From assembly GCA_003240695.1 (NCBI GenBank), contig QFNC01000009.1, positions 31,471 to 95,470 of the forward strand: a stretch of DNA of 64,000 bases. Reading direction: 5' to 3'. A model generated the notes under the pieces. The model saw only the letters and a program-made list of their open reading frames with translations. It was not told where the DNA came from and did not search any database. Position numbers and translations under genes: made by a program. Positions within the stretch are counted from its first letter, which is position 1; every line of letters starts with the position of its first letter. This DNA is from Pseudoxanthomonas suwonensis (GTDB lineage: Bacteria > Pseudomonadota > Gammaproteobacteria > Xanthomonadales > Xanthomonadaceae). Below, piece after piece: positions 27,738-40,205 of the stretch.

Positions 27738-28976
27738 TTGGCCCCCGTCACCTCGTTCCCCAAATCCGACATCCGCGTGCTGCTGCTGGAAGGCATCAGC
27801 ACCAGCGCGGTCGATGCCTTCCGCGCCACCGGTTACAGCCAGATCCGCACCTTCGACAAGTCGCCGCCGCCGGAGCAGCTGCGCCAGGAACTGGCCGAGG
27901 CGCATCTGCTCGGCATCCGCTCGCGCACGCAATTGACCGCCGAGCTGCTGGACGAGGCCCGCAAGCTGATCGCGGTGGGCTGCTTCTGCATCGGCACCAA
28001 CCAGGTCGATCTGGAAGCGGCACGGCTGCGCGGCGTGCCTGTGTTCAATGCACCGTATTCCAACACCCGCAGCGTGGCCGAACTGGTCATCGCCGAGGCC
28101 GTCCTGCTGATGCGCGGCATCCCGGCGAAATCGATGCAATGCCATCGCGGTGGCTGGTCGAAGTCGGCTGCCGGCAGCCACGAGGTGCGCGGCAAGACCA
28201 TCGGCATCGTCGGCTACGGCCACATCGGCACCCAGGTCGGCGTGCTGGCCGAAGCCTTGGGCATGCAGGTGTTGTTCCACGACGTGGAAACCAAGCTGTC
28301 GCTGGGCAACGCGCGATCCGCGGCCGACCTGGGCGAGCTGCTGGCCCGCAGCGACATCGTGACCCTGCACGTGCCGGAAACCCCGGCCACGCGGATGATG
28401 ATCGGCGCGGCGCAGTTCGCGGCGATGAAACCCGGGGTGCAGTTCATCAATGCCTCGCGCGGCACCGTGGTCGACATCGATGCGCTCACGGCCGCGCTGC
28501 AGTCTGGACACGTGGCGGGCGCGGCCGTCGACGTGTTCCCGGTGGAGCCGCAGGGCAATGCCGATGCGTTCGTCTCGCCGTTGTGCGGCATGGACAACGT
28601 GATCCTGACCCCGCACGTCGGCGGCAGCACGCTGGAAGCGCAGGACAACATCGGCCTGGAAGTGGCCACCAAGCTGATCCGCTATTCGGACAACGGCAGC
28701 ACCCTGTCGGCGGTCAATTTCCCCGAGGTCACCCTGCCCGAGCACCGCGGCAGCCACCGCTTCCTGCACATCCACCGCAACGTGCCCGGCGTGCTGTCGC
28801 GGATCAACGACATCTTTTCCAGCGCCGGCATCAACATCGACGGCCAGTACCTGCGCACCGACGCGCAGGTCGGTTACGTGGTGATCGATGCCGCTTCCGA
28901 CCACGCCCAGGCCACCCGGCTGCGGGAGCGGCTGGCGGCGATCGAGGGAACCCTGCGCACGCGGGTGCTGTACTGA
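27738..28976 (+). CDS. serA: D-3-phosphoglycerate dehydrogenase SerA (with C-terminal ACT domain), TTG start
   Basis: Aligns end-to-end with E. coli SerA (MAPVTSFPKSDIRVLLLEGIS vs MAKVSLEKDKIKFLLVEGVHQ) and has a C-terminal ACT domain. No in-frame ATG exists; the TTG at 27738 fits the alignment. Confidence 0.9.
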   Translation: MAPVTSFPKSDIRVLLLEGISTSAVDAFRATGYSQIRTFDKSPPPEQLRQELAEAHLLGIRSRTQLTAELLDEARKLIAVGCFCIGTNQVDLEAARLRGVPVFNAPYSNTRSVAELVIAEAVLLMRGIPAKSMQCHRGGWSKSAAGSHEVRGKTIGIVGYGHIGTQVGVLAEALGMQVLFHDVETKLSLGNARSAADLGELLARSDIVTLHVPETPATRMMIGAAQFAAMKPGVQFINASRGTVVDIDALTAALQSGHVAGAAVDVFPVEPQGNADAFVSPLCGMDNVILTPHVGGSTLEAQDNIGLEVATKLIRYSDNGSTLSAVNFPEVTLPEHRGSHRFLHIHRNVPGVLSRINDIFSSAGINIDGQYLRTDAQVGYVVIDAASDHAQATRLRERLAAIEGTLRTRVLY

Positions 28977-29008
28977 CCGCCCCGGTTTCCGACGAACGGC
29001 CACTCCAT

Positions 29009-29044
29009 CCTTTCATGTAAGCGTTAGCATGCTTACATGAAAGG
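29009..29044. promoter_or_regulatory. Perfect 14-bp inverted repeat (CCTTTCATGTAAGC-N8-GCTTACATGAAAGG) enclosing the start codon of the first gene of the psp/flotillin cluster
   Basis: Read directly from the sequence. The right arm contains the ATG at 29037-29039. There is no flanking T-run, so it is not a canonical terminator. Confidence 0.6.
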
Positions 29045-29681
29045 CGATCACCCACTCAGCCCCTCCACCCTGCACCAGCGCGCCTACCGCGAACGCATGC
29101 GCGAGGCCGGCCTGGTGAAGAAGGATGTGTGGATCCTGCCCGAATACGCCGAGGAGCTGGCCGGCATCGAAAAGGCGATGCGAGAATCCGGGCATGCGCT
29201 GTCCGTCTCGCATGCCCACACCGGTCCGCAGACGGCCTGGACCCTGGCCGCCATCGCCGACGCCATTGCCGCCACCGGCGCGGCGCGCAGCGGCTCGATC
29301 ACGCCGGAATGGATCGAAGGGGCCGATCCCAGCCTGCGGCTGCAGATGCACGACCACGGCGATCTGTCGGTGTTCGTGGCGGTCGGCCACCAGCAGATCG
29401 TGGTCGAGGCCTACCTGTGGCCAGTCAGCCATGTGGCCGACCCGGCCGCGTTCGATGCGCACGTGCTGACCACCCACAAGCTGTTGCCGCTGTCCACGGT
29501 CGGCATCGAGAACATCGGTGGCGTGCCCGGCTACACCATGTTCGGTTCGCTGGATGCGCAGTCCAGCCTGGCCAGCGTGCTGTTCGAGGTCCAAACCCTG
29601 GCCGACAACGTGCTGGATGCCAGCGAAGCCTGGCTGGACTACCTGAAACCCGAACATCGCCTCGCGGAGACAGCGGCATGA
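29037..29681 (+). CDS. Hypothetical protein, possibly YjfI/DUF2170-like (PspA-associated), with ~55-aa charged N-terminal extension
   Basis: 214 aa. The C-terminal 150 aa loosely resemble the YjfI family that precedes yjfJ (a PspA homologue) in enterobacteria. The assignment is tentative and rests partly on context, since a PspA-like gene follows and is translationally coupled. Confidence 0.5.
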   Translation: MKGDHPLSPSTLHQRAYRERMREAGLVKKDVWILPEYAEELAGIEKAMRESGHALSVSHAHTGPQTAWTLAAIADAIAATGAARSGSITPEWIEGADPSLRLQMHDHGDLSVFVAVGHQQIVVEAYLWPVSHVADPAAFDAHVLTTHKLLPLSTVGIENIGGVPGYTMFGSLDAQSSLASVLFEVQTLADNVLDASEAWLDYLKPEHRLAETAA

Positions 29682-30364
29682 GCCCGTTCAAGGATCTGCT
29701 CAAGCGCATGCAGGAGAGCATGGACGAGCTGGGCGACACCCTGTCGGGCACCAGCACGGCCGAACGCCTGCTGGATGCCGACATCCGGCAGCTGGATGCC
29801 CAGCTGCACGGCTGGCGTGGCGAAGCCGCCAGTCTCAAGGCGCGGCGCATCACCAGCGGCGAACGGCTGCGCGAACACGGCGCGCGTATCCGCCAACTCG
29901 AAGCCGATGCGCTGGATGCCCTGCGTGCGCGTCGCAAGACGGCCGCACGCGAACTGGCCGAAGGGATCGCCGCTGCGCAGGCGGCGAAGGCCGGGGAAAA
30001 GACCCGTCTGGACGATCTGCAAGCACACGAGAAGGCACTGCTGCATGTGATCGAACAGGGCGAATCGAAGCTGCGCCGGCTCAAGCACCAACTGGACACG
30101 TTGCGGGCCAGCGAAAGCCTGCAGCGGGCACAGGCCGCGGTAGCCAAACGCCAGCCCGATGCCGCACCGCATCCCGAATCGGCGGTGGCATCGGCGCAGC
30201 GGGTGCGGCAGCGCCGCACCCCGGGTAGCACCTCCTCCCCACGCACGGTGGCCAGCGCGAAGCCTCCGGCAGAGGCGATACTGGACAGGCTGGCAGCGCG
30301 TTTGGGCGCCGCCGATTCCGCCGCATCGCCACCCGCTCGCAAGCTCGCCAGGAGACGTTCATGA
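29678..30364 (+). CDS. PspA/IM30/Vipp1-family (ESCRT-III-like) coiled-coil protein, YjfJ-like
   Basis: 228 aa. N-terminal ~150 aa predicted as continuous amphipathic coiled coil with PspA-like heptads (LLDADIRQLDAQL...LKARR...). C-terminal low-complexity tail. ATG overlaps the upstream stop (ATGA). RBS GGAGA. Confidence 0.55.
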   Translation: MSPFKDLLKRMQESMDELGDTLSGTSTAERLLDADIRQLDAQLHGWRGEAASLKARRITSGERLREHGARIRQLEADALDALRARRKTAARELAEGIAAAQAAKAGEKTRLDDLQAHEKALLHVIEQGESKLRRLKHQLDTLRASESLQRAQAAVAKRQPDAAPHPESAVASAQRVRQRRTPGSTSSPRTVASAKPPAEAILDRLAARLGAADSAASPPARKLARRRS

Positions 30365-30999
30365 CCGAATTCCTGACCACCGCCCTCACCTTCCCCACCC
30401 TGGTCTGGAGCGTGCTGTTCGCGTTCTGCCTGTTCTACTGGATGCTGGCGGCCACCGGCCTGGTGGACATCGACCTCGACGTGGCCGATGCCAGCCTGTC
30501 GTTCGACACCGACGTGGGCGAAACCGGTGCCTCGGCGGGCATGCTGGCACGATTCGGGCTGGGTGGCGTGCCACTGATGCTGGCGCTTGTCATCCTCGCG
30601 TTCGTCAGCTGGGTCATCACCTATTTCGTGCATCTGCTGGTGCTGGCGGCACTGCCGGACATGCTGCGCTGGATCCTGGGCGCAGTCACGGCCGTCGGTG
30701 CCGTGATCCCCGGGGTGCTGGTGGCATCGCTGGTGCTGCGGCCGTTGCGCAAGCTGATCGCGAAACTGCGTCCACCGGTGCAGCCCTCGCTGCTCGGTCG
30801 GGTCGGCACCGTCACCACGCCAACGGTCGACGACACCCATGGCATGGCCGCATTCGACGACGGCGGCGCGGGACTCATCCTGCAGGTCCGCGCCCGCCCA
30901 CCGGACACCTTCAACCGCGGCGACCGGGTCGTGCTGCTGGAATACCAGACCGGCGACAATAGCTACCGCGTGATGTCCGAAGACCGCTTCAACCGCTGA
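30361..30999 (+). CDS. YqiJ/NfeD-like inner-membrane protein (3 TM + C-terminal OB-fold)
   Basis: Three N-terminal TM helices, then a C-terminal beta-rich segment (GRVGTVTTPTVDDTHGMAAFDDGGAGLILQVRARPP...RVVLLEY) typical of NfeD/YqiJ OB domains. Precedes a flotillin, as in the yqiJ-yqiK pair. ATGA overlap with the upstream gene. Confidence 0.65.
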   Translation: MTEFLTTALTFPTLVWSVLFAFCLFYWMLAATGLVDIDLDVADASLSFDTDVGETGASAGMLARFGLGGVPLMLALVILAFVSWVITYFVHLLVLAALPDMLRWILGAVTAVGAVIPGVLVASLVLRPLRKLIAKLRPPVQPSLLGRVGTVTTPTVDDTHGMAAFDDGGAGLILQVRARPPDTFNRGDRVVLLEYQTGDNSYRVMSEDRFNR

Positions 31000-31031: not shown

Positions 31032-32969
31032 ATGTCGCTTTCCATGCTTATTCCGGGCCTGATCGGCCTCGCGGCCCTGGTGGTCGTGGTGTTCGGTCTG
31101 ATCGGCCTGTTCAAGGCGTTCTACGTCAAGGTCGAACAGGGCACGGCCCTGATCGTGAACGACCTGAGCGCCACGCCGAAGGTGCATTTCACCGGCGCGC
31201 TGATCATCCCGGTGCTGTACAAGGCCGAAGTGATGCGCATCAGCCTGATCACGCTGCAGGTGGACCGCCGCGGCAAGGAAGGGCTGATCTGCAAGGACAA
31301 CATGCGTGCCGACATCACCGTGGCCTACTACCTGCGGGTGAACGAAACCCCGGCCGACGTGCTGAAGGTGGCCAAGGCGGTGGGCGTGGACCGCGCCTCC
31401 GACAAGGACGCGGTGGACGAGCTCTTCAACGCCAAGTTCTCCGAAGCGCTGAAGACGGTGGGCAAGAAGTTCGAGTTCATCGAGCTGTTCGAGCAGCGCG
31501 AGCAGTTCCGCGACGAGATCGTCAAGGTGATCGGCAAGGATCTGAACGGTTACGTGCTGGAGGACGTGGCCATCGACTACCTGGAGCAGACCCCGAAGTC
31601 GCTGCTGGATCCGAGCAACATCCTCGACTCCGAGGGCATCCGAAAGATCACCCAGCTCACCGCAGCGCAGAACATCATTACCAACGAGCTGGAACAGAAC
31701 GAGCGCCTGGCCATCACCAAGAAGAACGTGGAAACCCGCGAGGCGACGCTGGCGCTGGAACGCCAGCAGGCCGAGGCCGAGGCGCGGCAGAAGCGCGAGA
31801 TCGAGAGCATCCAGGCACGCGAAGGCGCCGAAACCGAGAAGGTGCGCGAGGAACAGCGCTTGCTGGCAGAAAGCGCGCGACTGGAAACCGAGGAGAAGGT
31901 GCAGATCCGCGACCAGGAACGCCAGCGCCAGGTGGAAATCGCCGAGAAGAACCGCCTGCGTGCGGTCAGCATCGAGGCCGAACGGGTGAACCGCGCGGCG
32001 AAGATGGAAGCGGTGACCACCGACCGCGAGGTGAAGCTGCAGGAGGTCGAACGCGACAAGGCTGTGGAACAGGGCGTGATGGACGTGGCCAACATCACCC
32101 GCGAGCGCGTGGCGATCGACAAGACCGTGGCGATGGAAGAGGAGCGCATCAACGAGGTGCGCGAGGTGTCCGCCGCCGACCGCGCCAAGCAGGTGCGGGT
32201 GCTGGAAGCCGAAGCCGCCGCGCAGGAAACGCTGGTGAAGGAAATCAAGTCGGCCGAGGCCGGCGAGGCCGCCGCCAAGCACCGTGCGGTGGAAATGACC
32301 ACGCTGGCGCAGGCCGAGCTGGAAGCCGCCGGTCGCCAGGCCGATGCCAAGAAGGTGTTGGCCGAAGGCATCAAGGCCGAAAAGGCGGCCATCGGACTGG
32401 CCGAAGCGCGGGTGATCGAGGCCAAGGCCGACGCCAATTACAAGCAGGGCAATGCCGACGCGCGCGTTCTGGCCGAGCGCTTGGCCGCCGAGGCCGAGGG
32501 CGAAGCCAAGCTGGGCCAGGCACGCGCCAGCGCCGCCGAGGCGATGGGCAGCGCCGAAGCCTCCGCAGTGGGCAAGCGCATGGCCGCCGAAGCGGAGGGC
32601 CTGAACGCCAAGTTCGATGCCATGGACAAGATGAGCGACTCTGCACGCAGCCACGAGGAATTCCGCATGGCGCTGGACACCAGCCTGGAGCAGGCACTGG
32701 CCACCATCGAAGCGGGCAAGGTGGTGTCGAAGGAGAATGCCGAGGTCATCGCCACCGCGCTGCGCAATGCGCGCATCGATCTGGTGGGCGGCGAAGGCGG
32801 CATGTTCGACGCGCTCAGCCGCGCGATCGCGTTGGGCCGCTCGGTGGAAGGCTTTGCCGGCAAGAGCCCGATCGTGCAGGAGCTGCTGGACAAGTACCTG
32901 GGCGTGAAGCAGCCCTCCACCGATGCCACGCTGGCGCTGGGTCGGGATGCGGCGGATGCGAACGGCTGA
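31032..32969 (+). CDS. Flotillin-family SPFH/band-7 protein (YqiK/FloT-like)
   Basis: 645 aa. N-terminal TM, SPFH domain, then a long EA-rich coiled coil (EAEARQKREIESIQAREGAETEK...) typical of flotillins. Confidence 0.9.
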   Translation: MSLSMLIPGLIGLAALVVVVFGLIGLFKAFYVKVEQGTALIVNDLSATPKVHFTGALIIPVLYKAEVMRISLITLQVDRRGKEGLICKDNMRADITVAYYLRVNETPADVLKVAKAVGVDRASDKDAVDELFNAKFSEALKTVGKKFEFIELFEQREQFRDEIVKVIGKDLNGYVLEDVAIDYLEQTPKSLLDPSNILDSEGIRKITQLTAAQNIITNELEQNERLAITKKNVETREATLALERQQAEAEARQKREIESIQAREGAETEKVREEQRLLAESARLETEEKVQIRDQERQRQVEIAEKNRLRAVSIEAERVNRAAKMEAVTTDREVKLQEVERDKAVEQGVMDVANITRERVAIDKTVAMEEERINEVREVSAADRAKQVRVLEAEAAAQETLVKEIKSAEAGEAAAKHRAVEMTTLAQAELEAAGRQADAKKVLAEGIKAEKAAIGLAEARVIEAKADANYKQGNADARVLAERLAAEAEGEAKLGQARASAAEAMGSAEASAVGKRMAAEAEGLNAKFDAMDKMSDSARSHEEFRMALDTSLEQALATIEAGKVVSKENAEVIATALRNARIDLVGGEGGMFDALSRAIALGRSVEGFAGKSPIVQELLDKYLGVKQPSTDATLALGRDAADANG

Positions 32970-33050: not shown

Positions 33051-36000
33051 ATGACCGATGCCACCGACACCACTGCCGTCGCCGCAGCACCTGCATCAAA
33101 CACAGTCAATCAGGCCGTGGCCGAGGGCGGTGCCTACGAGGTGCTGCGCAAGCGGCTCACCGGTTTCGGCGGGCAGCTGCAGGCCATCGCGGATGATCTG
33201 AACGCGCGCCGCCTGCAGGAGTTCGGCGACAGCCGCATGGCGCTGGCCGGCCGCTTCCGCATCCGCACCGAGCACAACTGCGTGGGCCGCGACATCGTGC
33301 AGGTCGGCGATCTGCTGGTGTTCGGCTTCAACGTGTTCATGGGCCTGAAGAAGACCACCACGATTGCGGACGTGTTCGGCCTGTACCGCATGGTTGAGGT
33401 GAGCGACGGCTACGACGTGGAACCGGTGGACATCGCCGGCAGCTTCCTGTCCGATCCCGGTTTCGTGCGTGATTTCGACGAGCTGTACGCCTACTACAAG
33501 CATGCGCGCCTGCTGCAGCTGATCGTGCTGGACAGCAAGTTGATGGCCGCCTTCCAGATCGGCGAGCGTAGCACCGACGTGCGCGTGTTCCGCTGGTCGC
33601 TGGCCAGCAGCGGCGAGATCAGCTACATCGATGCCCGCGGCGAACGCGACATCGCCCTGCCCCCGCCGTTCGATTTCGAGTGGCAGCGCGCCACCCGCGA
33701 GATGGAAGTCAGCGGCCGCCATCCGCATCTCAACATCCTCGACACCCTGTTCGTGGAAACCCTGGGCGGCGATCTCACCGTCAAGGTCGAGAACAACACC
33801 GAGACCGGCAGGGGCATCTACAGCGAACCGGTGGAGGACAGCACCCAGTCCATCGACGATGCGCGCTTCGAATTCGCGCAGGTCGGTTCGCTGATCCTGT
33901 TGAAGATCCTGCCCTACCGCGAAAGCCAGTGGCGCGGGCTGGTGTACAACACCATCACCCGCAAGGTGCAGCGCATCGATGCCATCGTGCAGGCCTGCGT
34001 GCAGTTGCCGGAAGACCACGGCATCATCTTCCCGGGCGGCTACTACCTGCAGAACGGCGACCACAAGGCCTTCGACGCGGCCATGGCCGGCATGCAGTTC
34101 AAGCGCGCGATCCGCTCGCCCAACGGCGAGGACGTGCTGTACATCTTCTACGACCGCGACTCCGGGCTGGCCGCGCTGTTCGTGTACAACATGATCCAGC
34201 GCCAGCTGCAGAACCCGGTGTTCGCGCACGGCTATGCGCGGCTGGCCGACGGCCGCATGGTGCTGTTTCACGACGAAACCGGCGACCCCACCCGCGTGCA
34301 CCAGATGCAGGTGTGGATCACCCCGTTCGCCAGTGACGAATTCGCCGCGGCGCGGCCGCCCAGTGGCAGTTTCATGGGCAGGCTGGGCAATGCCGAACTG
34401 GTGCGTGGCATCTCCAACGTGTACGACCTGGTCCGCCAGATCGGCAACACCGACGTCTCCGCCAGGCGCTACGAACTGCTGACCCATCAGACCCGGCAGC
34501 TGTTCGACCAGCACCACTGGATCGACGACGACCATTGCAGCGGCCTGCGCAGCCTGCTGCACGAGGTGGCCGCCACCGGCGAATCGGTGCTGGACGAATT
34601 CGAGAAGGTGCAGAGCATCCGCGCGCAGTCGGACGCGGCCATGCAATCGGCACAGATCGAACAGCGCAAACTGCTCGGCCGTCTGCAGCCGGATTCGTGG
34701 AGCCGCATCCAGGAATACGTGGAAGCGCTGAATGCGCTCTCCCGCCAGCGTGGGCATCTGCTCACCATCCGCGATTACCGCTACATCGACACCGCTGCCA
34801 TCGATGCCATGGCCGAGGCGCTGCAGGAAGCGCACACGCGCATCGGCTCGGCCACCGGTGCCTTCCTGGCCGGCGACAAGGCCCTGCTGCCGTTCAACGA
34901 ACAGCTCCAGCAACTGGACCAGACCGCGCAGAAGGCGGAGACGGCCAGACAACTGAGCGAGCAACTGCAGGCGATGCAGACGATGTCCAGCGACTTGGAC
35001 ATGCTGTCGGAATTGATGGCCTCGCTGCCGGTGGACGATGCTACCCAGCGCACCCGCGTGGTGGATGCCATCTCCAATCTGTACGCACGCCTGAACCAGG
35101 CGCGCGCACGTGCCGACCAGCGCCGCAAGTCGCTCGGCTCCAGCGAGGCGGTGGCGCAGTTCGGTGCGCAGTTCGGCCTGTTTTCCCAGTCCATCACCAG
35201 TGCGCTGGGCATGGCGACCACGCCGGAGCGCGCCGACGAGCAGCTGGCACGGCTGCTGGTGCAGCTGGAGGAGCTGGAGGGACAGTTCGGCGAACACGAG
35301 CAGTTCCTCGTCGACATCCTCGGCAAGCGCGAGGAACTGCTGGAAACCTTCGAGGCGCACAAGCAGGCGCTGCTCGACGATCGTCAGCGCAAGGCGCAGT
35401 CGGTGCTGGATGCCGCCAACCGCATTCTCGACGGCCTGGGCAAGCGCACCGAACGTTTCGATCAGCCCGACGAGCTGAATGCCTTCTTCGCCGGCGACCC
35501 GCTGATCCTGAAACTGCGCGAGCTGGCCACGCGGCTGCGGGAACTGAAGGATCCGGTGAAAGCCGACGCGGTCGAAGCGCGCCTGAAAGGCGTGCGCGAC
35601 CAGTCCGTGCGCGTGCTGCGCGACCGCAGCGAGCTGTTCGAGGACGGTGGCAGCGTGATCCGCATGGGTCGGCATCGCTTCAGCGTGAACACGCAGCCGC
35701 TGGACCTCACCCTGCTGCCGCGCGAAGACCACCTGGCCGTGCATCTCACCGGCACCGATTACCTGCAGCCGCTGCGCGATGCCACGCTGGACGAATTGCG
35801 CGCCTTCTGGCAAGTGACGCTGGATTCGGAATCGCCCCAGGTGTACCGCGGCGAATACCTGGCCTGGCAGGTGTTGCGGGCCGCCGAACACGGCAACGAT
35901 GGCTGGAGCCGCGATGCGTTGCTGCATCTGCTGGCCGACCCCGAACAGCTGGCGGCGCGGGTGCGCGAGTTCGCCGCGCCGCGCTATCGGGAAGGTTACG

Positions 36001-38408
36001 AAAAAGGCATCCACGACCACGATGCCGTGCTGATCCTGCAGGCGGCCGTGCCGCTGCAGCAGGTCGCGGGCGCACTGGTGCACCCAGCGGCTGCGCGTGC
36101 GCTGGCATTGCTCGCGTGGTCGGCGCATCCGCGGCTGCAGGCGACCTGGCGCGAACGGATCCGCAACGCGCATGCCCTGCGCACGCTGTTCGGCAGCAGC
36201 GACGCCCTTCAGGCCGCGCAAGCCGACATCGCCCATGCCATCGCCGCATTCGGCGAACGCGAAGCGCTGGCCGACGGCGTGGCATCGGCGCAACAGGCCA
36301 CCGAGTACCTGTCCGACGCGCTGCAGCAGGCCGATGGCCGCTTCGCATTCACCCGACAAGCCGGGCAGTTGCTGGAGACACTGCGGCAGCAGCTGCAGCA
36401 GGCCGGACTGGGCGAAAGCATGTCGCTGGCGCTGCAGCCGGACCTGCCGCTGGTCGAACGCTGGCAGTGGCTGCTGCACTGGCTGACGGCATTGACCAGG
36501 CAACCCGCGCATGCGGCGCTGGCGCGTTTCGTGCCTGAAGCCGCCGCATTGGCATTGCTGGGCGACACCCTACCCCACGACCTGCGCGACATCACGCTGG
36601 ATGCCACGGTCACCGGCCTGCTGGGCGAGCATCCGCGCATCGCCGGCGGCAGCCTGCCGTTGGCCATCGACGACTTCCTGCCGCGCCTGCATGACCACGC
36701 ACATCGCTTCGTGCCGGCCTTCCACCGTTACCAGCAGCAACGCCAGCAGGTGATCGCCCAGCAACGCGATGCCCTGCGACTGGGCGAGTATCAGGCCAGG
36801 CCACTGACTTCGTTCGTGCGCAACCGGCTGATCAACGACGTTTACCTGCCCATCATCGGCGACAACCTGGCCAAGCAGATGGGCACGGTGGGCGAATCCA
36901 AGCGCAGCGACCTGATGGGCATGCTGATGCTCATTTCGCCGCCCGGTTACGGCAAGACCACGTTGATGGAATACGTGGCCAACCGGCTGGGTCTGGTCTT
37001 CATGAAAATCAACGGTCCGGCACTGGGCCACGACGTGCGCTCGCTGGACCCGGCCCAGGCACCGGACGCCACCTCGCGGCAGGAGCTGGAAAAACTGAAT
37101 CTGGCGCTGGAGATGGGCAACAACGTGATGCTGTACGTGGACGACATCCAGCACACCCATCCGGAATTCCTGCAGAAATTCATCTCGCTCACCGACGGCA
37201 CCCGCCGCATCGAAGGCGTGTGGCAGGGGCGCACGAAAACCTACGACCTGCGCGGGCGCAAGTTCGCGGTGGTGATGGCCGGCAACCCGTATACCGAGTC
37301 GGGCGAGGTGTTCAAGATTCCCGACATGCTGGCCAACCGCGCCGACATCTACAACCTCGGCGACGTGCTGGGCGGCATGGAGGACGCCTTCCTGCTCAGC
37401 TACATCGAGAACAGCCTGACCGCCAACCCGGTGCTGGCGCCTCTGGCCACCCGCGACCTGGCCGACCTGTACCTGCTGGTGGACAGGGCGCTGGGCAAGG
37501 AGGTCTCCACCAATGCGCTGAAACATGCCTACAGTGCCGCGGAAATCAACGAGATCACCGCCGTTCTGCAACGCATGATCGCGGTGCGCGAGGTGGTGTA
37601 CCGGGTCAACCAGCAGTACATCGCCAGTGCCGCGCAGGCTGACAAGTACCGCACCGAGCCGGCCTTCAAGCTGCAGGGCAGCTACCGCAACATGAACAAG
37701 CTGGCCGAGAAGATCTCGCCGGTGATGAACGATGCCGAGCTGCAACAGCTGATCAACGACCACTACCAGGGCGAATCGCAGCTGCTGACCACCGGCGCGG
37801 AGGAAAACCTCCTGAAACTGGGGGAATTGCGCGGCACCCTGACCGAAGCGCAGCGCGCCCGCTGGCAGCAGATCAAGGCCGACTTCCTGCGCAACAAGGC
37901 GATGGGAGCGGACGATGCGGACGTGGGGGGCCGCGTGATCGCACAGCTGGCCGACATCGCCGGTGGTCTGCAATCGCTGCGTGCCGAACCGAAAACCACC
38001 GTGACCGCGCCGGAGCCAGTTGCGCCGCCGCCGTGGCAGGATCTGCTGCAGGCGTTGCAGGCACTGCGCGTTCCGCAGGCGGCGCCCGCTCCCGCCGTGC
38101 CGCCGGCGCCGTCTCCCGAACCGCGCGAGTGGACCGTGACCGCCCCCGGCCTGACCGACGCCCTGCGCGAGGGCCTGTCGCCGTTGCTGGACACGCTGGC
38201 CAGCAGCGGCCAACAACAGCAGCAAGTGCAACTGGCTTTGGGGCGTCTTGCCGACGCCCTGCGCGACTCCGCGCAGCAGCAGCCGACCGTCATCGTGCAC
38301 GAAGACGCCGGCACGACGCCGCGCAAGCGCCGACCCAAGCCGGAAAAGCTGAAAAAACTGGACGAACAACTGGACATGATCGATTTCCACCGGAAACCGG
38401 CGGAATGA
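33051..38408 (+). CDS. Giant (1785 aa) protein: ~1290-aa N-terminal helical/coiled-coil region + MoxR/AAA_5-like AAA+ ATPase core + Pro-rich linker and basic tail
   Basis: Uninterrupted ORF with normal codon bias and RBS GGAG. Walker A SPPGYGKTTL (~aa 1299), Walker B VMLYVDDIQ, sensor-1-like VVMAGNPYTESG and ANRADIYNL (the MoxR NP...LDRF pattern). C-terminal APEPVAPPPW...PAPSPEP linker and RKRRPKPEKLKKL tail. No match to a characterised protein recalled. Confidence 0.8.
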   Translation: MTDATDTTAVAAAPASNTVNQAVAEGGAYEVLRKRLTGFGGQLQAIADDLNARRLQEFGDSRMALAGRFRIRTEHNCVGRDIVQVGDLLVFGFNVFMGLKKTTTIADVFGLYRMVEVSDGYDVEPVDIAGSFLSDPGFVRDFDELYAYYKHARLLQLIVLDSKLMAAFQIGERSTDVRVFRWSLASSGEISYIDARGERDIALPPPFDFEWQRATREMEVSGRHPHLNILDTLFVETLGGDLTVKVENNTETGRGIYSEPVEDSTQSIDDARFEFAQVGSLILLKILPYRESQWRGLVYNTITRKVQRIDAIVQACVQLPEDHGIIFPGGYYLQNGDHKAFDAAMAGMQFKRAIRSPNGEDVLYIFYDRDSGLAALFVYNMIQRQLQNPVFAHGYARLADGRMVLFHDETGDPTRVHQMQVWITPFASDEFAAARPPSGSFMGRLGNAELVRGISNVYDLVRQIGNTDVSARRYELLTHQTRQLFDQHHWIDDDHCSGLRSLLHEVAATGESVLDEFEKVQSIRAQSDAAMQSAQIEQRKLLGRLQPDSWSRIQEYVEALNALSRQRGHLLTIRDYRYIDTAAIDAMAEALQEAHTRIGSATGAFLAGDKALLPFNEQLQQLDQTAQKAETARQLSEQLQAMQTMSSDLDMLSELMASLPVDDATQRTRVVDAISNLYARLNQARARADQRRKSLGSSEAVAQFGAQFGLFSQSITSALGMATTPERADEQLARLLVQLEELEGQFGEHEQFLVDILGKREELLETFEAHKQALLDDRQRKAQSVLDAANRILDGLGKRTERFDQPDELNAFFAGDPLILKLRELATRLRELKDPVKADAVEARLKGVRDQSVRVLRDRSELFEDGGSVIRMGRHRFSVNTQPLDLTLLPREDHLAVHLTGTDYLQPLRDATLDELRAFWQVTLDSESPQVYRGEYLAWQVLRAAEHGNDGWSRDALLHLLADPEQLAARVREFAAPRYREGYEKGIHDHDAVLILQAAVPLQQVAGALVHPAAARALALLAWSAHPRLQATWRERIRNAHALRTLFGSSDALQAAQADIAHAIAAFGEREALADGVASAQQATEYLSDALQQADGRFAFTRQAGQLLETLRQQLQQAGLGESMSLALQPDLPLVERWQWLLHWLTALTRQPAHAALARFVPEAAALALLGDTLPHDLRDITLDATVTGLLGEHPRIAGGSLPLAIDDFLPRLHDHAHRFVPAFHRYQQQRQQVIAQQRDALRLGEYQARPLTSFVRNRLINDVYLPIIGDNLAKQMGTVGESKRSDLMGMLMLISPPGYGKTTLMEYVANRLGLVFMKINGPALGHDVRSLDPAQAPDATSRQELEKLNLALEMGNNVMLYVDDIQHTHPEFLQKFISLTDGTRRIEGVWQGRTKTYDLRGRKFAVVMAGNPYTESGEVFKIPDMLANRADIYNLGDVLGGMEDAFLLSYIENSLTANPVLAPLATRDLADLYLLVDRALGKEVSTNALKHAYSAAEINEITAVLQRMIAVREVVYRVNQQYIASAAQADKYRTEPAFKLQGSYRNMNKLAEKISPVMNDAELQQLINDHYQGESQLLTTGAEENLLKLGELRGTLTEAQRARWQQIKADFLRNKAMGADDADVGGRVIAQLADIAGGLQSLRAEPKTTVTAPEPVAPPPWQDLLQALQALRVPQAAPAPAVPPAPSPEPREWTVTAPGLTDALREGLSPLLDTLASSGQQQQQVQLALGRLADALRDSAQQQPTVIVHEDAGTTPRKRRPKPEKLKKLDEQLDMIDFHRKPAE

Positions 38409-39120: not shown

Positions 39121-40205
39121 CCACACCGAGCGACGGACCACTGATCACCGCACAGGCCCTGCCCGATGCCACCGCGCTGGTGCAGCTGGGCCTGACCAAT
39201 GCCGACATGCCGGCCATCGTGCAGGCCGGCAAGGGACTGCAGGATCTCTCGCCCACCGCACTGCAGGGCTATGGCCGCGATGCCGCCGCCAGGACCAACA
39301 GTTTCTCGACCCAGCTGCTGGACAAGGTGCGCAACAGCGATCTGGATGCCTCCGGCGACAAGCTGGGCGAGGTGGTGAAGATCGCCCGCAGCCTGAATCT
39401 GCAGAGCTTCGCCGAGCGTTCGAAGGTGCCGCTGCTGGGCCCGTTGATCGACCGGATGAAGGCCACCCGCGACGACCTGATCCAGAAGTACAGCAGCACC
39501 AACAGCCAGATCGACCAGCTGATGCGCGAGGTCGGCCAGACCCAAGCCACCCAGGCGCAGCGAGTGAAGGAATACGACCAGATGCACGGCATCGTGCGCG
39601 AGGAACACCGCGATCTGGGCATCCACGTGGCTGCCGGGCGCATGCGCCTGGCCGAACTGCAACAGGAAATCGCCACGCTGGACGGCCGCGACGATCCGGC
39701 ATCGCGGCTGCGCCGGTCCGAACTGGACACCGCGATCCGCCTGCTGGACAAGCGCGTGTCGGACCTGCACGTGCTGCAGCACGCCACCGAACAGACCCTG
39801 CCGATGATCCGCCTGATCCAGGCCAACGCGATCCAGCTGATCGAAAAATTCAGTGCCGTGCGCGACGTGACCCTGCCGATGTGGCGGCACCAGTTCGCCA
39901 TCCAACTGTCGCTGGCGGACCAGAAGAATGCGGTGCAACTGGCCAATGCCATCGACGATGCCAGCAACGCGCTGATGCGCCGCAATGCCGAACTGATGCA
40001 CCAGACGTCGGTGGAGACGGCCAAGGCCAACCAGCGCTCGGTGCTCGACATCGACACGCTGCGCACGGTCAACGACACATTGATCCGCACGGTCGAGGAA
40101 GTGCGGACCATCCACCGCGATGGCATGCAGCAGCGGCAGCAGACTGAACGCGACATCCAGCAGATGCGCGAACAGCTGCAGCAGCAGCTCGATACCCGCA
40201 CCTGA
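39117..40205 (+). CDS. telA: TelA/KlaA-family toxic-anion-resistance-like protein
   Basis: 362 aa. TelA-like motifs (DQLMREVGQTQATQAQRVKEYDQM, TLPMIRLIQANAIQLIEKFSAV...WRHQFAIQLSLADQ). ATG at 39117 within the longer track frame. Confidence 0.75.
   Translation: MTTPSDGPLITAQALPDATALVQLGLTNADMPAIVQAGKGLQDLSPTALQGYGRDAAARTNSFSTQLLDKVRNSDLDASGDKLGEVVKIARSLNLQSFAERSKVPLLGPLIDRMKATRDDLIQKYSSTNSQIDQLMREVGQTQATQAQRVKEYDQMHGIVREEHRDLGIHVAAGRMRLAELQQEIATLDGRDDPASRLRRSELDTAIRLLDKRVSDLHVLQHATEQTLPMIRLIQANAIQLIEKFSAVRDVTLPMWRHQFAIQLSLADQKNAVQLANAIDDASNALMRRNAELMHQTSVETAKANQRSVLDIDTLRTVNDTLIRTVEEVRTIHRDGMQQRQQTERDIQQMREQLQQQLDTRT

Follow-up and report, generated by a model that had tools for sequence, protein, structure and literature searches.

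Paired palindromic boxes at the start of a bacA-like gene of Pseudoxanthomonas suwonensis: a putative operator on a predicted leaderless promoter

The bac (biofilm-associated cluster) operon of Pseudomonas aeruginosa is the closest described relative of the locus analyzed here. Its first gene encodes BacA (PA3732/PA14_16140), which has been described as a possible regulator of the operon (PMC10948618), and the levels of BacB-F are 6- to 13-fold higher in a PA14 bacA::Tn mutant (PMC10948618). P. aeruginosa BacA purifies as a dimer, its C-terminal domain has an ExsC/CesT chaperone fold, resembling the chaperones of type III secretion systems (T3SSs), and an interaction with BacB has been predicted by an AlphaFold2 (AF2) screen (PMC13092808). 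The published model consists of a sigma54 promoter and a chaperone-type mechanism based on protein-protein contacts (PMC10948618); in addition, PA3732 has been cited as a direct RsmA target (PMC4066749). We analyzed a stretch of 64,000 nucleotides of Pseudoxanthomonas suwonensis DNA (contig QFNC01000009.1, positions 31,471 to 95,470), which is referred to as the window and whose own numbering is used below. The window contains a bac-type gene cluster, and the start codon of its first gene, a bacA-like gene, is embedded in a perfect palindrome located at positions 29009-29044. The best explanation as a whole is a two-box DNA operator on a leaderless bacA promoter that would be repressed by BacA itself; judging from the comparative data, we estimate the probability of this interpretation at about 0.6.

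The palindrome and the bacA promoter region

As read directly from the sequence, the palindrome is a perfect inverted repeat composed of a 14-nt left arm, CCTTTCATGTAAGC (29009-29022), an 8-nt loop, GTTAGCAT (29023-29030), and a 14-nt right arm, GCTTACATGAAAGG (29031-29044). The window contains no other perfect interrupted inverted repeat whose arms reach 14 nt. By chance, 0.017 repeats of this kind would be expected per window according to first-order Markov simulations, and ~0.001 according to an analytic calculation for an AT-rich arm such as this one. The GC content is 45-50% around the palindrome and 43% in its arms, compared with 67% for the genome, and 32 nt separate the left arm from the stop codon (28974-28976) of the upstream serA-like gene. 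A preliminary description of this DNA had pointed out the repeat and the ATG within its right arm, and both statements were borne out: the ATG at 29037-29039 (+ strand) opens a 214-codon open reading frame (ORF), of which it is the first possible start following an in-frame TAG codon at 29025-29027. The homologs also place the start here, because all of them begin at an equivalent ATG and because the invariant region S10-R22 of the protein requires a start upstream of it. The minus strand contains another 214-codon ORF (29013-29657) that nearly mirrors the bacA ORF; many other long antisense ORFs are present across the window, as is typical for high-GC DNA, and they provide no evidence of genes.

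Within the arms we distinguish two boxes of 10 bp, both centred on CATG, which are separated by a 12-nt spacer and are 22 bp apart from centre to centre. Box 1, TTTCATGTAA (29011-29020), occupies the position of a -35/-10 spacer, and its position is invariant across the family. Box 2, TTACATGAAA (29033-29042), spans the start codon and the predicted +1, and also encodes Met-Lys; it is thus dual-coded, in that TTAC|ATG|AAA sets the first two BacA codons. The sequence between the boxes includes a predicted -10-like hexamer, TAGCAT (TAnnnT; 29025-29030, + strand), which is separated from the ATG by 6 nt, and a leaderless mRNA is predicted to start with the A at 29037. The complete putative two-box operator (29009-29044) has, in this genome, the form of a perfect 14+8+14 palindrome. 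No copies of the half-site beyond chance were found elsewhere in the 64-kb window, and hence no local regulon.

A check of homologous loci had been proposed in the preliminary description. We performed a protein-guided scan using one genome per species, which identified 331 relatives, and examined the best 80 of these 331 loci, together with five contigs of near relatives (93%- and 74%-identical). Paired boxes of the type T[TC][TA]CATG[TA][AG]A were detected at the start of bacA in nearly all 80 loci and in the five near-relative contigs; the species concerned belong to the Lysobacteraceae, Pseudomonas (including P. aeruginosa) and the Rhodocyclaceae. When the sequences are anchored at the start codon, a common layout emerges: TTGACA, 17-18 nt, TAnnnT, 6-8 nt, and the A of the ATG. 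Of 79 loci, 67 have the TAnnnT hexamer at this distance from the ATG (6-8 nt), 46 have a -35 box with at least five of six matches to TTGACA at a spacing of 17-18 nt, and only two have a motif resembling a Shine-Dalgarno (SD) sequence. In 78 of 81 loci, the distance from the CATG of the spacer box to the downstream ATG is 22-25 nt. Peaks of information content coincide with the -35, the boxes, the -10 and the ATG, the maximum being reached at the position of the spacer box. Within each 6.6-kb locus, the two-box pattern is present exclusively at the bacA promoter.

The second box occupies different positions in the two clades into which these loci fall. In the clade that includes the window (clade A), it covers the +1/ATG region and TTaCATGAaAG is conserved; the BacA proteins of this clade all start with Met-Lys or, if the box has the sequence TTTCATGACA, with Met-Thr. 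The sister clade, to which Pseudomonas belongs, has its second box at about -45, and each of its boxes is a perfect 10-bp self-palindrome, TCACATGTGA. Some loci of this clade, from Marilutibacter, Luteimonas and Alkalisalibacterium (L035-L040, L043, L048), contain a third box, with boxes at about -68, -45 and -22. The periodicity of the boxes is 22-24 bp, and the three-box arrays suggest that several dimers might bind cooperatively. Covariation between the boxes and the N-terminal sequence of BacA was rejected as a test, because each of the two types of box corresponds to one phylogenetic clade and because within Pseudomonas the boxes vary while the protein does not.

The gene upstream of bacA is serA only in the sub-clade of the window (the window, L081-83 and L084-85), while the 80 other loci retain the boxes without serA, and so the boxes follow bacA and not serA. 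Thus, a site with dyad symmetry is maintained in orthologous promoters regardless of the flanking genes and, according to the consensus geometry, it overlaps the predicted -35, -10 and +1 elements. We consider with high confidence that the palindrome is a real, conserved and functional cis-element, and it very likely acts at the DNA level, by serving as an operator of a leaderless promoter. The suggestion in the preliminary description that it is a regulatory switch of the downstream cluster is therefore very probably correct on comparative grounds, and these same data favour the dimeric DNA operator that had been mentioned there as a secondary possibility.

The bacA mRNA is predicted to be leaderless because no SD-like motif is present and the -10 hexamer is located 6-8 nt from the ATG. 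The window conforms to this pattern (TAGCAT, 6 nt, ATG), and no SD-like motif was found at positions -16 to -5 of its ATG. A simple promoter scan did not call a promoter at this locus, where a -35 box is missing, and for this reason the window promoter is recognizable only through its relatives. A sigma54-like element (TGGCAC-N5-TTGC, allowing up to 3 mismatches in 10 positions) was found neither in the 100 nt preceding the window ATG nor in those preceding the full-length P. aeruginosa start; a scan of the whole window for this element at 3 mismatches gave as many matches as expected by chance. No published transcription start site (TSS) for PA3732 was found in the literature searched.

A second conserved cis-motif, CCGTTCGTCGGAA (28987-28999, - strand), is located at -50 to -38 from the ATG, where the relatives have their -35 box. 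It is present in a single copy in the 64-kb window and is retained in the nearest relatives (L081, L084/85). Its core, CCGTTCGTCGG, has CCG-N5-CGG symmetry and is found upstream of the bacA promoters of both clades: at about -65 to -55 in about 20 other loci (including L023, L025, L030, L033, L045, L046, L051, L052, L054, L066-L069 and L076), and inverted at about -72 in Pseudomonas (L072, L074, L077, L078). In the sub-clade of the window, the core is inverted and located at -48 to -38 (28989-28999 in the window), in the place of the missing -35, a position that would fit a class II activator site.

BacA as candidate binder of the boxes

The 66 residues that precede the DUF2170 domain of the BacA-like protein have no Pfam coverage, yet they hold the most conserved stretch of the protein. 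Residues 1-57 (29037-29207, + strand), which we refer to as the N-domain, comprise a helix (9-23), an extended segment (GLVKKDVWI) and a second helix (35-54), and constitute a candidate operator-binding module; S10, R15, R18, R20, R22, G25, K28, K29, W32 and P35 are invariant. Weak matches to PF11455 ("Antitoxin MazE-like") were obtained for 25 of 27 N-domain members, with a best E value of 3e-4, so that the link to this family is transitive and remote rather than a direct membership. Weak matches to a second family, NF041430 ("plasmid repression protein F"), were obtained with NCBIfam; the scores of the window protein do not reach the threshold of either PF11455 or NF041430. A literature search on DUF3018/PF11455/UrfF gave nothing usable. 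Protein F of the IncQ plasmid RSF1010 is a 68-aa autorepressor. A search of the PDB sequences with the N-domain profile produced chance-level matches only, and the BacA crystal structure, 8q8o, aligns to residues 67-205 of the window protein, leaving the N-domain outside. In the case of E. coli YjfI, both the N-domain and the boxes are missing.

In the current NCBI annotation, P. aeruginosa BacA is a protein of 206 aa that includes the N-domain (L223, 1452-1503 and 1501-2121), and the region upstream of this start reads TTACATGTGA-gctg-TTGAAA-tc-TTACATGTGA-tctcg-TAGTGT-gagtcc-ATG, that is, two boxes and sigma70-type hexamers, with a -10 followed by 6 nt and the ATG. The crystallised chain (8q8o), however, consists of 146 aa, corresponds to the DUF2170 part only and appears to begin at an internal Met, Met60. 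The 478-bp "intergenic-to-intergenic" PCR product reported in PMC10948618 would imply the same short annotation. The N-terminal 59 residues and the true P. aeruginosa promoter thus seem to lie outside the published analysis, and it would follow from the short gene annotation that the domain, the operator and the sigma70 promoter have not been described before. Indeed, the account given in PMC10948618 deals with the DUF2170 part and mentions neither an N-terminal domain of a DNA-binding type, nor an operator or a leaderless transcript. P. aeruginosa and the window share the gene order, homologous proteins, the boxes, sigma70-type hexamers and an ATG located 6 nt past the -10; unlike in P. aeruginosa, the window promoter has no -35 box and the window protein falls outside the NF050185 equivalog.

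An exhaustive search with the N-domain profile yielded 186 proteins, many of which are stand-alone, basic proteins of 45-58 aa. Two of the stand-alone proteins, P0189 (22.7 bits) and P0251 (26.9 bits), pass the PF11455 threshold. Three others (P0195, P0197 and P0203) have scores of 46-48 bits to the N-domain profile and are encoded on unrelated phage-like contigs with GC contents of 29%, 45% and 54%. Each of these three has an ACATGT-centred palindrome in the -35/-10 spacer of its own operon promoter (TTGACA-taaaaagGACATGTCac-TATGAT, TTGCGT-tACATGTAAcgacctg-TATAAT and TTGCAG-taACATGTaactgatg-TATAAT), and for two of them the spacer ACATGT is the sole one in 2-3 kb. The family association of the domain with the boxes thus extends beyond bacA, and the BacA N-domain is probably the binder of the boxes. 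The stand-alone homologs are located in phage-like strings of small genes (L209, 400-415 and 1680-1730; L213, 715-750; L215, 1215-1250). On the P0195 contig (29% GC), a stretch of 1.9 kb has four to five ACATGT palindromes where about 0.6 would be expected; several of them are intergenic and promoter-like, a distribution that would suit a phage repressor acting at more than one operator. Two marginal homologs on small MOBQ plasmids and IncY plasmids of Enterobacteriaceae are located beside RelE/ParE toxin-antitoxin modules, and a unique TTACTAGTAA palindrome is present just upstream of each (L224, 845-860; L225, 572-585), which agrees with the BacA box at 8 of 10 positions.

In the model that we propose, which postulates the TSS, the binding, the oligomeric state and the inducing signal, the boxes bracket the -10 and cover the +1 and the start codon, so that a bound repressor would block RNA polymerase. 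The repressor would be BacA itself, with the N-domain recognizing each box as a dimer. The dimeric DUF2170 domain would link two N-domain units and could receive an inducing signal, for instance, by binding the PspA-like BacB.

Alternatively, the boxes might be a DNA operator for a regulator encoded elsewhere, such as a YwnA-like Rrf2 repressor, while BacA acts via protein contacts. This possibility came from a scan of metagenomes for TTTCATGTAA-N9..15-TTACATGAAA, which matched at least 120 loci. Among the matches listed, 10 have a bacA homolog, all with spacers of 13 or 14 nt and with the BacA ATG inside the box, and 53 have spacers of 9 nt; matches on low-GC contigs with a short ORF or no ORF at the motif are taken to be due to chance. 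At least 35 distinct N9 sites, mainly on high-GC contigs, are located at the leaderless start of a YwnA-like Rrf2 gene. These genes encode proteins of about 150 aa and have TTGAC 17 nt upstream of a TAnnnT located in the spacer (L088-L203; for example, L094, 2890-2918; L099, 3004-3032; L110, 4973-5001), and they appear to be leaderless and autoregulated. The Rrf2 operators thus resemble the bacA promoters in their 10-bp half-sites and in the order of their elements (-35, spacer box, TAnnnT, and a box with a leaderless ATG-AAA start). A regulator acting in trans would also fit the view of the authors of PMC10948618, who favour a chaperone-type, protein-protein mechanism, and the fact that no DNA-binding fold has been solved, or predicted with confidence, for the BacA N-domain.

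However, the Rrf2 operators have a 9-nt spacer and an adjacent Rrf2 gene unrelated to BacA, while the spacer is 12 nt in the window and 12-14 nt in the bacA loci. A shift of 3-5 bp places the half-sites in another helical phase, and a rigid dimer of the Rrf2 type would not be expected to bridge the bacA boxes. Moreover, Rrf2 and bacA never occur together in the loci examined: the window and the 3 kb around each bacA locus contain no Rrf2 gene, and the Rrf2 loci contain no ORF with an N-domain. The self-palindromic boxes of the sister clade, arranged in twos and threes at a periodicity of ~23 bp, indicate one small dimer per box, and the stand-alone N-domain homologs have boxes without a nearby Rrf2 gene. 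Since the spacing differs, the genes do not co-occur and the bacA boxes form arrays, we regard the two as separate systems, whose shared half-site may reflect convergence on a leaderless start context (...TTAC|ATG AAA). Control of bacA by a regulator of this kind is therefore unlikely, albeit the most plausible of the alternatives.

Several observations weigh against an operator bound by BacA. The half-site is not unique to BacA, being identical in the unrelated Rrf2 family, and a box was seen in only three of nine stand-alone contexts; no ACATGT box was found in the contexts of P0173, P0193, P0251, P0196, P0226 and P0229 within the sequence available. The N-domain of the window protein scores 14.2-14.5 bits against PF11455, below the gathering threshold of 22. 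The AF2 model of the N-domain alone, a helix-extended-helix, is of moderate confidence (pLDDT, predicted local distance difference test, 71), and a Foldseek comparison of this model with the PDB gave no match and no DNA-binding fold. Regarding the promoter, its elements are all consensus matches that are predicted rather than mapped. The window and its closest relatives have ACTCCA (2/6 matches) instead of a -35 box, so that the window promoter may be weak or depend on an activator, and only 60 nt without a terminator separate bacA from serA, which would allow read-through. Finally, the P. aeruginosa bacA mutant is an uncomplemented MAR2xT7 insertion, and read-out from the transposon could explain the rise in BacB-F.

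The palindrome as RNA

The preliminary description favoured an RNA structure: a hairpin that hides the start codon and the ribosome-binding site and opens upon heat or stress. Such a hairpin would form in the bacA mRNA or in serA read-through transcripts. A stable stem can indeed be formed. RNA folding predicted a 16-bp stem with a 4-nt loop, and the minimum free energy of the 104-nt segment is -28.3 kcal/mol (z = -4.0). Read-through transcripts containing both arms, with the ATG buried in them, are plausible, because in this sub-clade the -35 is missing and serA, which is encoded on the same strand, ends without a terminator 60 nt before bacA. There is, however, no ribosome-binding site to hide, as only two of 79 loci of this family have an SD-like motif, and the conserved geometry of the family predicts transcription to start at the ATG itself. 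A start downstream of the left arm is part of what had been named at the outset as evidence against the hairpin, and the start predicted (though not mapped) here, at the A of the ATG, indeed leaves the left arm outside the mRNA. In the sister clade, as in P. aeruginosa, both boxes are located upstream of the predicted start (at about -45 and -22) and therefore cannot be present in the mRNA.

The pattern of conservation points in the same direction. The sequence of the boxes is maintained across proteins that are only 47% identical, while the arm extensions and the length of the loop are not; even the 74%-identical relatives, in which serA is likewise the upstream gene, do not retain the extension of the arms past the 10-bp boxes and have 11-nt arms and a 13-nt loop. 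In addition, self-palindromic boxes and arrays of three fit protein dimers and not a hairpin between boxes. A scan of positions 28700-29400 against Rfam at E<=10 gave no match on the palindrome, and three chance-level matches elsewhere. Altogether, the stem that had been proposed can fold, but the temperature- or stress-sensitive translational gate built on it is not supported, and we regard this explanation as improbable. Since the window has no -35 and serA no terminator, a hairpin that buries the ATG in serA read-through transcripts is possible as a secondary effect.

That the palindrome serves as a transcription terminator or 3'-end stabilizer of serA is very improbable, and the preliminary description had likewise judged it unlikely to be only the serA terminator. 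Although the intergenic region has no other strong hairpin and the palindrome lies 32 nt past the stop of serA, its stem is AT-rich and is followed by CGATCACCC without a T-tract, a terminator scan found no site at 29009-29060, and 80 loci without serA in the surrounding 3 kb also have the element at bacA.

The bac-type cluster and comparison with known systems

The serA-like gene (27750-28976, start approximate, + strand) encodes a D-3-phosphoglycerate dehydrogenase with 2-Hacid_dh and ACT domains. It is followed by a series of genes on the same strand. The bacA-like gene (29037-29681) encodes a protein of 214 aa that consists of the N-domain and a DUF2170/YjfI domain (PF09938, E = 8.5e-43, residues 67-203). 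Its stop is overlapped by the bacB-like gene (29678-30364), which encodes a PspA/IM30 protein (PF04012), and the next gene is a bacC-like membrane protein gene (30361-30999). Further downstream are genes encoding a 645-aa coiled-coil membrane protein (31032-32969), a DUF3686/AAA ATPase of 1785 aa (33051-38408) and a TelA-like protein (~39132-40205). The identities to the P. aeruginosa proteins are 47% for BacA, 34% for BacB and 45% for BacC, the last over its full length, and homologs of the bacA-like ORF carry the annotation "biofilm formation regulator BacA". The window protein scores 231 bits against NCBIfam NF050185 (BacA), for which the equivalog cutoff is 300, with residues 10-205 aligned to positions 6-204 of the 206 of the model; it is a BacA homolog of the same architecture that falls outside the Pseudomonas equivalog. 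Because the first three genes match BacA, BacB and BacC in the same order, the cluster is regarded as a bac-type operon, bacABC(DEF)-like. A gene for a DUF2170 protein is followed by one for a PspA-family protein and then by BacC and BacD homologs, an order that agrees with the six-gene bac operon of PMC10948618.

BacA was published without a known mechanism, as a possible regulator of a P. aeruginosa PspA operon linked to biofilms and virulence, and the comparative data now provide a concrete model that can be tested cheaply. It defines an operator (the ACATGT boxes), a sigma70 leaderless promoter and a candidate DNA-binding domain that lies outside the crystallised construct. We tentatively extend it, with less than even confidence, to the proposal that BacA is a hitherto unrecognised type of one-component regulator, in which a PF11455-related DNA-binding module is joined to a DUF2170 dimer. 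Such a regulator would repress its own leaderless sigma70 promoter via arrays of ACATGT boxes and would be released when the chaperone domain captures BacB or another membrane-stress signal, so that, in Pseudomonas and Lysobacteraceae, a circuit of the Psp type would operate with BacA in the place of PspF/sigma54. If this is true, the published structure and promoter model of P. aeruginosa missed the regulatory half of BacA, with the gene annotated from an internal Met. The boxes would also be a likely DNA target for the widespread PF11455-related small proteins (45-58 aa) of phages and plasmids, and they provide one case in which a start codon and the first Lys codon also serve as part of an operator half-site. 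As a kind of element, an operator through which a repressor controls its own promoter is ordinary. What is undescribed is a regulator that combines an antitoxin-like module with a chaperone-like DUF2170 domain over a PspA operon, together with the correction of the P. aeruginosa model.

Two types of known systems are most similar to the proposed circuit. In MazE-like (PF11455) autorepression, and for the small repressors of plasmids and phages, the first gene of the operon encodes a protein with a small N-terminal module, as bacA does. By analogy, the two to three short palindromic boxes located on the core promoter about two helical turns apart would correspond to the operators of those systems, and a C-terminal domain that binds a partner could modulate repression in a manner similar to conditional cooperativity. 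The bac cluster differs from them in that it has no toxin gene: no MazF/PemK-like gene was found among the downstream genes, which encode PspA-like, membrane, AAA and TelA proteins instead. In addition, the C-terminal domain of BacA is a T3SS-chaperone-like DUF2170 dimer, and the cluster that is controlled is a membrane-stress cluster of the PspA/flotillin/AAA type. With the Psp system of E. coli, in which PspF activates a sigma54 promoter and PspA is the anti-activator, and with partner switching of the ExsC type, the bac system shares the coupling of a PspA-family operon to a PspA-binding protein. In contrast to the E. coli system, however, the bac cluster has neither a bacterial enhancer-binding protein nor a sigma54 promoter, and its proposed control consists of a repressor and an operator instead of an activator sequestered by PspA.

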